In this document: positions 10,587 to 29,180 of the stretch, piece after piece
Layout of the letters: each line of letters starts with the position of its first letter
How positions within the stretch are numbered: the first letter of the stretch is position 1
NCBI GenBank assembly: GCA_010356995.1
Contig: ML996699.1
Location: forward strand, 124,001 to 153,180
Direction of reading: 5' to 3'
DNA from: Trichodelitschia bisporula
Lineage: Eukaryota
DNA length: 29,180 nucleotides
Translations under genes and position numbers: made by a program
Notes under the pieces: model-generated
What the model was told of the DNA's origin: nothing
The model's database searches: none
The model's input: only the letters and a program-made list of their open reading frames with translations

Positions 10587-10670
10587 GTCTGAATGGTCTA
10601 GTGGTATGATTCTTGCTTAGGGTCGACTAGAATATGCAAGAGGTCCCGCGTTCGACTCGCGGTTCAGACC
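10587..10670 (+). tRNA. tRNA-Pro (anticodon AGG) with 12-nt intron
   Basis: Acceptor GTCTGAA/TTCAGAC, A-box TGGTCTAGTGG, anticodon arm CTTGC-TT-AGG-G, intron 10623-10634 after position 37, T-GCAAG, T-arm CCGCG-TTCGACT-CGCGG, discriminator C; T5 run at 10678-10682 as Pol III terminator. Confidence 0.95.
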
Positions 10671-24256: not shown

Positions 24257-26051
24257 GCGGAATGTTGAACTGGGTTGTTGGGTCATGGGTCGGCGTCTGC
24301 TTTCCTCGAAACAGGTTATGAACTGCGTTATGGCCATAGCCGTGGGCGGCGTACATGCTAGGCAATTTAGGGCGGGTTAGAGCCACTGATGGTAGTCGCT
24401 TCGAGATACCCAGTCCTCCCACCCCGGCAAATCCATAAGGCGTTCAAGTTCAACCTCCATGTGCATGTGGTGATGTTATCATGGTTAATGGCATGTGAAT
24501 CGTAGCAACGGTGGCTTCGAACTTCCCATCAGCATGCAAGATGGTGACATCGCTCTCAGTCAAGTTTTCAATGAACTATTTTTATGCCAAGAACGGCTAT
24601 CATGGGGCTTATTGATGAAATTCATGTTGGTAACACTTTGGCTGCCAGAGATGGGTGGGTGTCCAGCCGCTGCAAGATGCATGAGTGGGCAAGCCACGGC
24701 GAGCCTCCGCACGCAGCCGGCGACCAACCGGGACGGCGGACATTGCTTCCGAATATTCTTCGAACTCAACGTCAGGCTTAGGCTCGAAGGAACAAGATGC
24801 TGTCAACGCTCATAAGCACCCCCCTTTCGCCAGATTCAATCCTTTTGATCTATTAGATTCGTATTCTTCCCGCTGACTGGGCACGTCTTCTGTTAACCCC
24901 CACGTTCTAGCCCCCTCGACTTGCCTGTCCTTGGATTCGACGGATTAAGTCTTGATGCCATGTGGAAGCTGAGCAATCTGGGGCAGCGGACCAAGGAGCA
25001 CATGCAACTAAAACGGGTACAACCGCATTGCATGGGTGGCACACATCAACTGCTGTGATAGATGAACGAGCGGTATCTACCCTGAGTACTCTGAGCACAT
25101 TGTAGCAACGTATCCAGCCTATCTACCAACCACAGTAGCTCCATGCACTTCGGAAAGTCCCTCTCTTGGCCCGCAGCAGGAAGGACCGCGCTGGTGGAAC
25201 TCCCGAGCCCTCAACCGCACACCCCAACAGCACATGCTCCCACACCGACTGATCGTCCCGCACTGCGGCGATTCACAGGATTTCGCCTCTTCGGCTATTA
25301 CCGCGAGGCCAGTCACTTTGCGATAATGTCCACGTTGGTGTGCTGATAGGCTGGCGGCAATCCGATCCTCCAAAAGTAGACACCATGGCCAGTCTGGACA
25401 GCTGGCTTGTCCGACTTGCTTGATATTGCGGACGGTTCTGCTGAGTTTCGCTGAGCACACGACGTCTTGCCCTTGTCTCCTACGCCCTTTTTTGCGATGC
25501 TTTGTGATAGCGTAGTTTCGATTATGGCGACACCTTCTGCTTTGCTCATGGCTTCCCCACAATGCACGCCTTGCTGACGTATCAACGAGTATACCAAAGG
25601 GGTTCAACAGCGTCCAAGCGTTCTTTTTTGGTTCTTGCGCTCGTCTTTCCATTGGGTCGTTGACGCCATCGTGTGGTCCCCTGGAGCCGCCATCAGCCTT
25701 ATGATCAGCCCTACGGCGTGGTGGCCTGGTTGTGTGCTCAGCCCTATGGGATATCCTTCTGGAAGCGTAACGGTCGCGTAACCATCGATCGCATCGGGTC
25801 CTCCACCGGACAAGACACCAAGATATAAACACAGGGCACCTCCGACCTATCCTCCAGCCAAGCACTCCACTTTCCACCACGAGCATTTCCTCCAGCATCT
25901 CCTATACATCCATTGCTTTTCTCTATCGCTCCTACAACACTTCCTCTAGCGCTTCCCCAACAGCGCTTTTCCCGGCACTTTCTCCAGCACATCCCGTATA
26001 CTCCTCCAGCATCTTTAGCATAATACCCTCACCGCTCCCAAAGCCACCAAA

Positions 26052-26804
26052 ATGTCACCGAATCCCCTCCTCGCCCTCAAGTTCATGGTCTCCCCACACC
26101 GCTGGGTCAAGAGCCGCCGCCGCTCCTCCGCCACCTCCCAGCGCAAATTCGAGCGCTGGGAAGCCCCCATCAAAGGCATCTACGAATTCACCCCCGGCCG
26201 TGGCTGGGCCCTCGTCTACGCCGAAGAGCCCACCGCCCTCTCCCTCCCCCACCCCGTCACGTACTCGCGCATCATGGGCAAGCACATGCTCAAATCCGAC
26301 TACCAATCGCGCAAATGCCACGGCAAAATCCAGAGCACAAACACGAACAAAGACCACCACGTCGGCTTCTTCCGCGTCGACATTGACGCCTACGTCCTCG
26401 CCTGGGACAAGTGGGGCAATTTCATCCCCGGGCCGTGGGAGCTGTGGACTGTGAATCCGGATACGGGGCTGTTTCGCAAGGCGACGCGCCGGGCGAGCGC
26501 GGGCAATATGGTCTTCGATCTGCCGGGGGATAAGGACAAGACTGAGAGTCCGATGGAGATGTGCAGTGTGGTTAGCTCGCGGCCGGTGAGCATCCGGGAG
26601 AGTGTGCGCGATTCGAAGGCGGATATCAAGGAGTCTGTTGTGCGCGTTGAGAGCATTGTCAGTCAGCTTGCGGTCCAAACGCCCAGTGCTCCGCAGTCGC
26701 TGCGGAGGGCGTCGACGGGCGGTTCACATGACGTCAGTCCGGCTGAGCTGCGTACACGGCTGGCTGCGCTGGAGAATGGGACTGCTATCGTTGGTGGGGT
26801 TTGA
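26052..26804 (+). CDS. Hypothetical protein (250 aa)
   Basis: ATG in good context (ccaccaaaATG), strong C/G third-position codon bias like the other genes here, aromatic-rich N-terminal half and low-complexity C-terminal half. Family not recognised. Confidence 0.8.
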   Translation: MSPNPLLALKFMVSPHRWVKSRRRSSATSQRKFERWEAPIKGIYEFTPGRGWALVYAEEPTALSLPHPVTYSRIMGKHMLKSDYQSRKCHGKIQSTNTNKDHHVGFFRVDIDAYVLAWDKWGNFIPGPWELWTVNPDTGLFRKATRRASAGNMVFDLPGDKDKTESPMEMCSVVSSRPVSIRESVRDSKADIKESVVRVESIVSQLAVQTPSAPQSLRRASTGGSHDVSPAELRTRLAALENGTAIVGGV

Positions 26805-27426
26805 CCAGTTGTTGTTGGAGGACATTGTTTCGATTGTACGGATGGCGGTCAGCTTTTGAGGGCTTTGTTAAATGGGTATTTGCGATGGGCGGCTCGCTCA
26901 AAAGCCCTTCTCAGATATGCTCGTTCAGCGTGGGTGGTTGTCTCAAAATCGTTTTTTAGATATCCTCTTGCAGCATCGGACATGGAATTCAATCGGTCCT
27001 GATTATTCGAAGACGCTGCATCGCGTGCCTCCTATCTACATGCATGTGCGGCCAGCGTATACTGTTCGTCCATCCTCCTACTTCTTTGCCTACTTCTCTC
27101 CTCATCTGCATTTCCCTATCCGCTCCCCTGGCCTTCGCCGGCCCGTTCCCCTTCTCTTCCTCATTCCGCTTTCCATCACGGCCCTCCCGCTCCTCTCTTT
27201 TCGCTTCTCCATAAGTTTCCAGCCTACGCGTGGATTCAGCCTCCCTGAGCATACCGCAGACTCGCGACAGCTTCATAAAATCCCAGACGCGGTACTCGTA
27301 CATGCTGAGTGGGCATAAAAAAGTGATCCAAGCCCGCGTCTTACCATGAACTGGGAACCCAAACCAAGACCGCAGTGATTATGACCTTAATCAAGAGCTC
27401 CTGGAGCAAAATTGAAGGAGGCAAAA

Positions 27427-27544
27427 ACATACAGCAGTTGGGATTCGCTGCTGGTCACCCACGCAACTACTAGTCAACCGGTTCGAAGCTTAACTTCAGT
27501 GAGCAGACGGGGACTGGTGCACTCCTCGACCTATGGCCGTATGT
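27427..27544 (-). rRNA. 5S rRNA gene (dispersed, apparently intact, 118 nt)
   Basis: Minus strand reads ACATACGGCCATAGGTCGAGGAGTGCACCAGTCCCCGTCTGCTCACTGAAGTTAAGCTTCGAACCGGTTGACTAGTAGTTGCGTGGGTGACCAGCAGCGAATCCCAACTGCTGTATGT; ends pair as helix I, conserved GTTAAGC, TAGTA, GGTGAC, GCGAATCC; T-run terminator follows (A run 27423-27427 on +). Confidence 0.95.
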
Positions 27545-27881
27545 GGTAGACAGTGTTGTCGGTTAACAAATAGCTGGCGAAAAAGATGGAAGCATTGTCA
27601 AAAGAAGTGTTCGTTCTCCAAGCGAGAGCGTTCTTGGGTTGGAATAGGGGACGTGCGTTAAGCTGCGGAGCATCTTCCCTCGATCAGCCGGCTGAGCAGA
27701 AAGCTTCACGGGCCACCTGAAAAATTATCATGGCCACCTCGCCTGGCTGATTTTGCGGACGGGACAGTTATGACTTTTTCGGCTGGTCCTTCGGCCAGAG
27801 TGTCGGCTTACATTACGCTTCGGAGCTCCTCCCGCTGAACAAGCCGATCAGCAAGCTTCCGGGGTGTAAAAAAGACAAAAA

Positions 27882-28270
27882 ACATACGGCAGTTGGGATT
27901 CGCTGCTGGTCACCTACGCAACTACTATTTGTCTGAGGGTTCTCTTCGTGGAAACTAGCAGTGGCTGCTGCTCGAGCCAAAACCAATGTATCAATTGATC
28001 TCTGACTGACTAGCTCGACCTCTGAATGAGGTCGGGAATGAGTGGCTATATACACAACGTCTGACTTTCAGTATCTTCCATCGATCTGACCAATTGTCAG
28101 GAAGAATACTCCAGATACTCAATTTGTCATGATAGAAGATTCTAGATCTTCATCCCGCAGTGGCTAGGTGTATACCGTCATTGCTCAGTTTGACACTATT
28201 CAACCAGTTCAAAGCTTAACTTCAGTGAGCAGACCGGGGCTGGTGTTCTCTTTGACCTGTGTCCATGTCG
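27882..28270 (-). pseudogene. Second 5S rRNA copy interrupted by a 266-bp insertion
   Basis: 27882-27929 aligns to the 3' part of the intact 5S copy and 28196-28270 to its 5' part; removing 27930-28195 and one CTATT restores a colinear 5S. The 5' end is degenerate (CGACATGGACAC vs ACATACGGCCAT). Confidence 0.92.
27930..28195. mobile_element. Solo LTR (TG...CA termini, 5-bp target-site duplication CTATT)
   Basis: Begins TGTC, ends GACA (4-bp terminal inverted repeat); CTATT at 27925-27929 and 28196-28200; TATA-like CTATATAC at about 28046; no coding capacity. Confidence 0.85.
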
Positions 28271-28766
28271 GTCTCGATCGGGTAACACCTGCGACCACCA
28301 CCTTCGGGCAGAATCCCAATATCGATTAGCTCATCACTTTGTTCCCAGCTTCACGTCAGTTTTATCAATGGAGGCTAATTAGAGGACTTGCGTATATGTG
28401 ACCGTCTCCCTTTCCGGCTTGGACCAGGTTGAGCTAGGGCCTGGTCCCGTCTTCATCAACGCTCTGCACGACAAAAGAGCTGGGAGTGGCAAACATTGAA
28501 CAAACCCACCACATTCCATCATATCTTCCCTGTATAGTGAAGGAATGGTTAATTCCAGATGTTTCCTGATCCCCAATGCATTGAAGCTATTACATAGCTG
28601 ATTTGGCGACATTTTCATACGCCACCGTTACTATTTGTTATTGGAGTGTTTGACTTCAAAGCCGTACCATTTTTATTTGTAATTCATTTGCCACTTTCGC
28701 TCCCAAAAAGGTATAGAAAGACAATGCCCGCAACCGAGGTGGGTGGGGAGGAGGTCCAGGTACACT

Positions 28767-29180
28767 TCAACAAATAAATTCTATACACAGCACTCGACCA
28801 GATCCATACCCCAGGCCAATCTTATCCCCGTGAATGGCGACGACACTCGGACTGCGATATTCGACTGGAAGCCAAAGAAGCTTTTCTGCGCCTTTGGTTA
28901 CCCATTCCCTGATAATCCTGAAACGTGGAGGATCCGATCCGAAACCTAGCAACTGCTTGCCGTCCGGCAAGAGGGCCACGGCGCTGACCGGACTCGAATG
29001 GCCCTCGAGCGTCTGCAGCGCCATTCCCGAGCCGGCGTCCCACAGCCTGACCGCCCCGTCATAAGATGCCGACGCCAGCTGCTTGCCGTTCGGCGAGAAG
29101 GCCACGGTGCTGACCCCTTCCGAATGGCCCTCGAGCGTCTGCAGCGCCTTTCCCGAGCCGGCGTCCCACAGCCTGACCGT
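28767..29180 (-). CDS. 3' end of an HNWD/HET-E-like WD40-repeat protein (probable NACHT-WD40 fungal NLR), truncated by the window edge
   Basis: Open from 29180 to the stop at 28767. Near-identical 42-aa (126-bp) repeats TVRLWDAGSGKALQTLEGHSEGVSTVAFSPNGKQLASASYDG, then the tail EWVTKGAEKLLWLPVEYR...IGLGYGSGRV typical of fungal NWD proteins. The NACHT domain is not in the window. Confidence 0.88.
   Translation of the reverse strand, partial: TVRLWDAGSGKALQTLEGHSEGVSTVAFSPNGKQLASASYDGAVRLWDAGSGMALQTLEGHSSPVSAVALLPDGKQLLGFGSDPPRFRIIREWVTKGAEKLLWLPVEYRSPSVVAIHGDKIGLGYGSGRVLCIEFIC
28950..29180 (-). repeat. 126-bp tandem WD40 coding repeat (about 1.8 copies visible)
   Basis: 29180-29055 and 29054-28950 align at offset 126 with long identical stretches. 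Confidence 0.93.

Follow-up and report, generated by a model that had tools for sequence, protein, structure and literature searches.

A 5S rRNA-like sequence in the genome of the dothideomycete Trichodelitschia bisporula is split in two by a 266-bp element, and the locus as a whole is probably best explained by a copia-type LTR element that hit a 5S pseudogene by chance and was later reduced to a solo LTR. The split, the duplication that borders the element, the multi-copy family to which the element belongs, and the left terminus common to copies of that family were all observed directly, either in the window (the whole stretch of DNA that was analyzed, 29,180 nucleotides long) or in contigs assembled from sequencing runs. 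The features on which the argument turns are as follows, in window coordinates.

27426..27544, minus strand: intact 5S rRNA gene with a T5 run after it (matches Rfam RF00001 across the full model, 1-120, with 87.9 bits and E 8.7e-18)
27881..27929, minus strand: 3' part of the split 5S sequence (5S positions 71-119, one copy of the duplication included), with a T6 run after it at 27877-27882 (BLAST, 96% identity across 50 nt)
27925..27929, no strand assigned: left target-site duplication, CTATT (read from the sequence)
27930..28195, minus strand (probable sense strand): probable solo LTR of 266 bp, TGTC...GACA, GC content 44.7% (recognized by its ends, the duplication, its multi-copy depth, and the left ends of copies in runs X3 and X4)
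28047..28052, no strand assigned: TATATA hexamer within the LTR (read from the sequence; it lies inside the 21-nt internal direct repeat D1)
28196..28200, no strand assigned: right target-site duplication, CTATT (read from the sequence)
28196..28268, minus strand: 5' part of the split 5S sequence (5S positions 1-75), in which the 5' strand of helix I lacks 2 nt (BLAST, 85.9% identity over 64 nt; Rfam, 27.2 bits)

The two 5S parts fit together with a precision that identifies the event that separated them. On the minus strand, positions 28196-28268 correspond to 5S positions 1-75 and positions 27881-27929 to 5S positions 71-119, and the overlap between the parts is exactly the 5 duplicated bases, which read AATAG in the 5S sense, versus ACTAG at positions 71-75 of the intact copy. 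Such an overlap, made up of the duplicated 5 bases themselves, is the signature of a staggered-cut insertion. CTATT has no third occurrence within 27880-28280, and the odds that a given 5-mer is repeated by chance are ~1 in 1000. The BLAST identities listed above are to the intact 5S copy (27423-27472 in the case of the 3' part), and Rfam matches the 5' part to the beginning of RF00001 (E 0.004, against a gathering score of 38). Because the left CTATT is preceded by an A, the base with which the element also ends, a 6-bp duplication (ACTATT) around a 265-bp element is equally possible from the letters alone; the TG...CA convention favors the 5-bp reading. An earlier note on this DNA had described a 266-bp TGTC...GACA element with a perfect CTATT duplication that splits a 5S copy at about positions 71-75, and the sequence, BLAST, and Rfam bore out its coordinates exactly, the position of the insertion within the 5S sequence included. 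In Xenopus numbering, we take positions 71-75 to fall between the intermediate element and box C.

The earlier note had also called the host of the insertion a 5S gene, and this part of its description requires amendment: the host is a 5S-like sequence, as claimed, but it is best called a 5S pseudogene rather than a gene because of its substitutions, a deletion in helix I, a weaker fold, and the lack of a TATA-like motif upstream. When its two parts are joined colinearly, the split copy differs from the intact gene by 13 substitutions (9 of them transitions and 6 of them G:C-to-A:T changes) and by the single 2-nt deletion in the 5' strand of helix I. The joined sequence is predicted to fold at -21.9 kcal/mol, versus -37.4 kcal/mol for the intact copy, with helix I lost. 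Membership of the 5S family calls for a score at or above the gathering score together with an intact helix I, a combination found in the intact neighbor at 87.9 bits and lacking in the split copy. A TATA-like sequence, CTATTTGTTAAC, lies ~17-30 bases upstream of the intact 5S gene, whereas no such motif is present in the 60 bases upstream of the split copy; Neurospora 5S genes are said, on the strength of work attributed to Tyler in 1987, to require an upstream TATA box. A T run is found 3' of both copies. We infer that the host copy was already a pseudogene when the element arrived, with the proviso that a single locus cannot date decay relative to insertion.

RIP was considered as the source of the differences between the two 5S copies and was rejected on the grounds that the indices are normal and that only 6 of the 13 substitutions run from G:C to A:T. 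RIP-mutated sequence is recognized by a TpA/ApT ratio of at least ~0.89 and a (CpA+TpG)/(ApC+GpT) ratio of at most ~1.03. The first index was 0.64 for the element, 0.72-0.77 for its flanks, and 0.62 for the whole window, and the second was 1.37, 1.24-1.25, and 1.26, respectively, so that neither the element nor the flanks nor the window has the character of a RIP-mutated repeat.

The element itself starts TGTCTGAGGG and finishes CAGTTTGACA, and it is unique within the window, where the next best BLAST match extends over 26 nt (E 0.2). Its anatomy is that of an LTR, with TG...CA termini that carry a short inverted repeat and with a target-site duplication in the 4- to 6-bp range. Complementarity between the termini is confined to 4 bp, and no terminal pair emerged from a repeat search; the terminal inverted repeats of ~10 bp or more that mark a MITE or another DNA transposon are thus lacking. 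The TATATA hexamer at 28047-28052 is a possible promoter element, judged by its letters. The LTR also contains internal repetition: a motif, (G)CAGTGGCT or GAGTGGCT, occurs three times (27958-27966, 28040-28048, and 28157-28165), and a 21-nt imperfect direct repeat occupies 28041-28061 and 28159-28179 with 71% identity. These internal repeats may be repeated U3 promoter or enhancer elements.

Other copies of the element were sought in sequencing runs. Nine of the 11 indexed runs hold part of it, and the best shares of 26 sampled words were 0.39 and 0.31 (both from one sample), 0.23, and 0.23, so that no indexed run reaches half of the sampled words; the other seven runs, X5 to X11, have shares that are small or zero. 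Four runs, X1 to X4, were aligned on 25000-28940 at 80% likeness; X1 and X2 derive from a single sample, X3 is an air metagenome, and X4 is a run of another organism. X1 and X2 contain contigs that are identical to the window from 25000 to 27413 (X1, depth 208) and from 25000 to 27448 (X2, depth 431), and these runs therefore represent the same strain, possibly the very source of the window, and are not independent of it. Rightwards from 27413, the long contigs give way to hundreds of short ones, and the 849 X1 records that aligned fell into 313 at 99% identity or more, 227 at 95-99%, 197 at 90-95%, and 112 below 90%.

Within the element, the summed depth at 28045, 28131, and 28166 was 16643, 24488, and 15099, respectively, in X1, spread over 7-15 contigs, and 9985, 28728, and 14784 in X2. 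These values place the element at ~23-118 times the single-copy depth, a rough range in that the X1 and X2 ratios differ about two-fold and summed contig depth does not equal copy number. They support a multi-copy family with tens of copies in the same organism. The 5S parts, in contrast with the tens-fold deeper element, are on near single-copy contigs, outside the repeat: 28209-28378 is covered by identical contigs at depths of 319 (X1) and 485 (X2), and on the other side a contig that reaches 27873 has a depth of 211. At 28045 and 28131, every X1 and X2 contig carries a letter other than that of the window. The LTR copy of the window is a minority variant that the contigs dropped, which is why the shares of sampled words in X1 and X2 are low.

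That the X1 and X2 contigs contain neither the LTR variant of the window nor its junctions makes them neutral on the insertion studied here, and no contig of the four runs, among which no second strain is represented, joins across 27929 and 28196, a gap in coverage rather than evidence (13 of 30 bins are covered in X4 and 3 of 30 in X3). The same absence from X1 and X2 is what could be said for an assembly artefact, or for a chance resemblance with no real insertion behind it. We consider this very unlikely: a perfect 5-bp duplication, combined with 5S parts that overlap by the same bases, is not expected from a misjoin, and the tendency of contigs to drop rare variants accounts for the missing words.

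A different possibility is that the element carries the 5S-like pieces as its own, in the manner of the TRIMs Cassandra and Ajax, in which LTR sequence derived from 5S is combined with 5-bp duplications, as reported in PMC10886601. At this locus, however, both 5S parts are external to the duplication and join into one colinear 5S sequence, their contigs are near single copy next to an element that is tens-fold deeper, and the copies in X3 and X4 have flanks other than 5S. A Cassandra- or Ajax-type TRIM is exceedingly improbable, being excluded by the position of the 5S sequence outside the duplication and on near single-copy contigs. The pieces are thus the two halves of the host sequence, and the element is what entered it.

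Among the 21 loose ends listed (131 more exist), two extend past the left end of the element. One, in X3, matches window positions 27929-28021 apart from 1 differing letter and 2 gaps and is preceded by ...CTGTTCTCAGCTTC; the other, a 2011-letter contig of X4, reads AACCCGGGCTCATAAC, then TGTCTGAGGGTTCG, and then matches 27946-28083. The left end TGTC is common to the X3 and X4 copies, and their flanks are unrelated to those of the window. At the right end, one X4 contig finishes at 28195, which is also the end of the contig, and another departs from the window at 28189 and continues for 29 unlike letters. Two exact-pattern scans of metagenome contigs, one with the left-terminus pattern and one with a 20-base internal word, gave 0 matches each. 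The X4 copies of the LTR (window 27942-28195) are ~94-96% identical to the window (5 differences in 138 letters and 6 in 102), whereas the only well-covered single-copy piece of X4 (26230-26379) is ~85% identical, and the LTR is thus better conserved than the neighboring reading frame. The higher identity of the LTR in X4 could reflect a recent spread between relatives or the presence of a close relative as a minor component of the sample.

The flank of the X4 copy bears on the class of the element. Read as its reverse complement, this flank presents GTTATGAGCCC directly after the LTR end ...CAGACA, and a yeast study used a probe specific for initiator Met-tRNA that includes these 11 bases, which makes GTTATGAGCCC a complement of the anticodon arm of the tRNA. 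A match of 11 bases abutting a terminus is expected by chance at ~4^-11 per site. An LTR beside its own primer site is a common arrangement, and we judged insertion of the element into a genuine tRNA(iMet) gene much less likely as the source of the flank, given that the match is confined to the anticodon arm; the five bases that precede it (AACCC) presumably differ from the D-arm side of an initiator tRNA. Use of the anticodon stem-loop half of tRNA(iMet) as the primer is a hallmark of Drosophila copia and yeast Ty5 and occurs in some Candida families as well (PMC5371799; bioRxiv 10.1101/2025.04.25.647736; PMC4139406). In the present family, the sequence expected of half-tRNA(iMet) priming was found in a copy from another organism, in 16 letters of one X4 contig. 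No full-length element, gag-pol region, or polypurine tract appeared in the aligned contigs.

On these grounds we are confident that the 266-bp element is an LTR, as the earlier note had proposed in naming it a solo LTR, an identity now supported by a multi-copy family with a sharp common left end, by the half-tRNA(iMet) primer site in X4, and by terminal repeats of only 4 bp. The primer-site-like flank directly after the LTR end in X4 is also the reason for reading the LTR as one of the Ty1/copia type, and the element would accordingly be the solo LTR of a Ty1/copia-like family, a class assignment that draws on one such flank in another organism. The sense strand of the LTR would then be the minus strand of the window, as it is for the 5S genes.

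The main competitor of this identification is a short non-autonomous repeat, MITE-like or unclassified, whose TG...CA ends and 5-bp duplication would be coincidental. Its appeal lies in the small size of the element (266 bp) combined with a high copy depth, in the lack of any visible parent in the contigs of the same organism, in the X4 copy that diverges 6 bases before the right end, and in a neighborhood that is a mosaic of other short repeats. We nevertheless regard it as improbable. The combination of TG...CA ends and a 5-bp duplication is the usual signature of an LTR and is uncommon among fungal DNA transposons; moreover, the terminal inverted repeats of the element are no longer than 4 bp, and an 11-base complement of the initiator-tRNA anticodon arm directly abuts it in X4, for which chance offers ~4^-11 per site.

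If the element is a solo LTR of this kind, its history may be reconstructed as follows. A Ty1/copia-type LTR retrotransposon that used half of the initiator tRNA-Met as its primer would have entered a dispersed, already degenerate 5S pseudogene. Its integrase would have made a 5-bp staggered cut at 5S positions 71-75, the repair of which would have duplicated CTATT. Presumed recombination between the two LTRs would later have deleted the interior of the element, with the 266-bp solo LTR as its remnant. The 5S hit itself was most likely a tolerated chance event in the dispensable DNA of a repeat-rich intergenic stretch, and not the result of targeting.

The intact 5S gene lies 337 bp from the split sequence, and by BLAST the likeness between the two copies ends at the 5S borders. 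Since the likeness is confined to 5S, the two are separate dispersed copies and not the products of a tandem duplication of a larger unit. The LTR is 386-651 bp upstream of the start of the intact 5S gene (27544). Part of the spacer between the copies (27638-27787) has at least one other near copy, represented by a 150-letter X2 contig with 8 differences at single-copy depth, and the summed depth over the same interval is 10-23 times that of a single copy.

On the far side of the split 5S sequence, the interval from ~28375 to 28766 has a summed depth of up to 50318, against 208 for single-copy sequence in the same organism, and the loose ends of its other copies remain window-like well past each break. 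An 8-bp GC-rich palindrome, GGACCAGG...CCTGGTCC, is present at 28421-28447. From 28767 to 29180 on the minus strand, and running off the end of the window, is the C-terminal end of a WD40-repeat protein gene (tail ...GRVLCIEFIC), which includes two 126-bp (42-amino-acid) repeats with 89% DNA identity at 28950-29053 and 29076-29179. We take this tail to resemble the fungal NACHT/WD40 (HET-E/NWD-like) family. Its k-mers occur at 130-150 times the single-copy depth in X1, and the WD40 gene tail and the DNA downstream of it may form one large multi-copy unit. Elsewhere in the window, a tRNA-Ser (GCT) gene at 10587-10670 is the only other Pol III gene and has no LTR copy nearby, and the MDM10 reading frame is 100% identical to an NCBI protein named from T. 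bisporula, with the best of the remaining matches, at 65-68% identity, in other Dothideomycetes, so that the window is nuclear DNA of this fungus or of a very close relative.

The arrangement of the LTR within one 5S sequence and upstream of another raises the question of targeting. The same copia-type LTR could belong to a family that prefers Pol III loci, either inside 5S sequences or within a Ty1-like window extending up to ~1 kb upstream, and precedents for such preferences exist: Ty1 insertions fall within ~1 kb upstream of Pol III genes, those for 5S included, and insertions of Ty3 and Tj1 fall at the start sites of such genes, again including those for 5S, according to PMC5911963. Furthermore, many repeated pieces occur in the intergenic DNA that lies upstream of the two 5S copies. 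The preference would nonetheless rest on one event. Neither of the other two readable left flanks (X3 and X4) is 5S, although both are too short to bear on the upstream-window version; that of X4 is the primer site, and that of X3, which by eye seemed half-similar to 5S and was considered as a hidden 5S piece, was rejected as such when it scored at best 8 in local alignment with the two 5S copies and the tRNA-Ser of the window, a value that 1041 of 2000 shuffles reached. In addition, the host copy is without the upstream motif of the intact gene, so that assembly of a Pol III complex on it may fail. Lastly, if 5S sequences account for perhaps 0.02-0.2% of a ~30-Mb genome, a rough estimate from the contig depths is that a family with tens of copies would not rarely hit one of them by chance. 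A preference of the family for Pol III loci is therefore unlikely.

The suggestion of the earlier note that the element might mark a family that targets 5S genes is thus unsupported, resting as it does on one event when both other readable left flanks are not 5S and when a lone hit among tens of copies falls within the range of chance; the note had itself cautioned that one insertion cannot show targeting. There is only a slim prospect that a copia-type family of a filamentous ascomycete is drawn to the bodies of 5S sequences or, like Ty1 in yeast, to an ~1-kb window upstream of active 5S genes, with the pile-up of repeats upstream of the 5S copies as its footprint. If true, no Pol III-directed LTR element would have been described in Pezizomycotina before it, as far as the literature searched shows.

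In its TG...CA ends, its 5-bp duplication, and an LTR length of a few hundred base pairs, the element is like the solo LTRs of Ty1/copia (Pseudoviridae) elements such as Ty5 of Saccharomyces cerevisiae and the Tca5/zeta-type elements of Candida albicans, and like Drosophila copia, and the related X4 copy, which directly abuts the complement of the tRNA(iMet) anticodon arm, adds a likeness to elements primed by half of the initiator tRNA-Met. Unlike the Ty1-like elements of yeasts, the LTRs of which are given as TGTTG...CAACA in PMC4139406, it has the ends TGTC...GACA. Ty5 is directed to silent chromatin via Sir4, and Ty3 and Tj1 of Schizosaccharomyces japonicus insert 1-10 bp upstream of the start site, including that of 5S genes, as summarized in PMC5911963. 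Our case is like Ty1, Ty3, and Tj1 in placing an LTR element at a 5S locus and unlike them in that those elements insert upstream and spare the internal promoter, whereas this single insertion is inside the 5S sequence at 71-75.

Punt is a DNA transposon and is heavily RIP-mutated, whereas the element studied here is an LTR and its RIP indices are normal. The two cases are nonetheless similar, in that a Neurospora crassa 5S pseudogene carries Punt (Margolin et al. 1998, cited in PMC6714961), and both therefore involve a filamentous ascomycete, dispersed 5S genes, and a transposable element within a 5S pseudogene. Mutsu elements, the sequence-specific non-LTR retrotransposons (LINEs) of zebrafish 5S genes described in PMC5340908, likewise interrupt the body of the 5S gene, but they do so by many insertions at the same endonuclease-defined site, ~20 nt from the 5' end of 5S, rather than by one LTR at 71-75. 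Cassandra and Ajax resemble our locus in having 5S sequence beside LTR sequence along with 5-bp duplications (PMC10886601) and differ from it in that their 5S sequence is inside the LTR and mobile with it, whereas here it is single copy and outside the duplication. The authors of a 2024 review state that they are aware of no transposable element insertion within a 5S gene (PMC10946416). A transposable element within 5S is seldom documented, yet Mutsu and the Punt insertion of Neurospora show that it is not new in kind. A literature search on the transposable elements of Trichodelitschia bisporula returned nothing relevant.

The insertion would be of wider interest only if the family showed a genome-wide bias towards Pol III genes. 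For annotation, it accounts for a "half" 5S match and for a short AT-richer island in the window. For the biology of the family, the locus sets the left terminus and the probable right terminus of a multi-copy LTR family from a dothideomycete that has received little study, and the X4 copy suggests half-tRNA(iMet) priming within that family.
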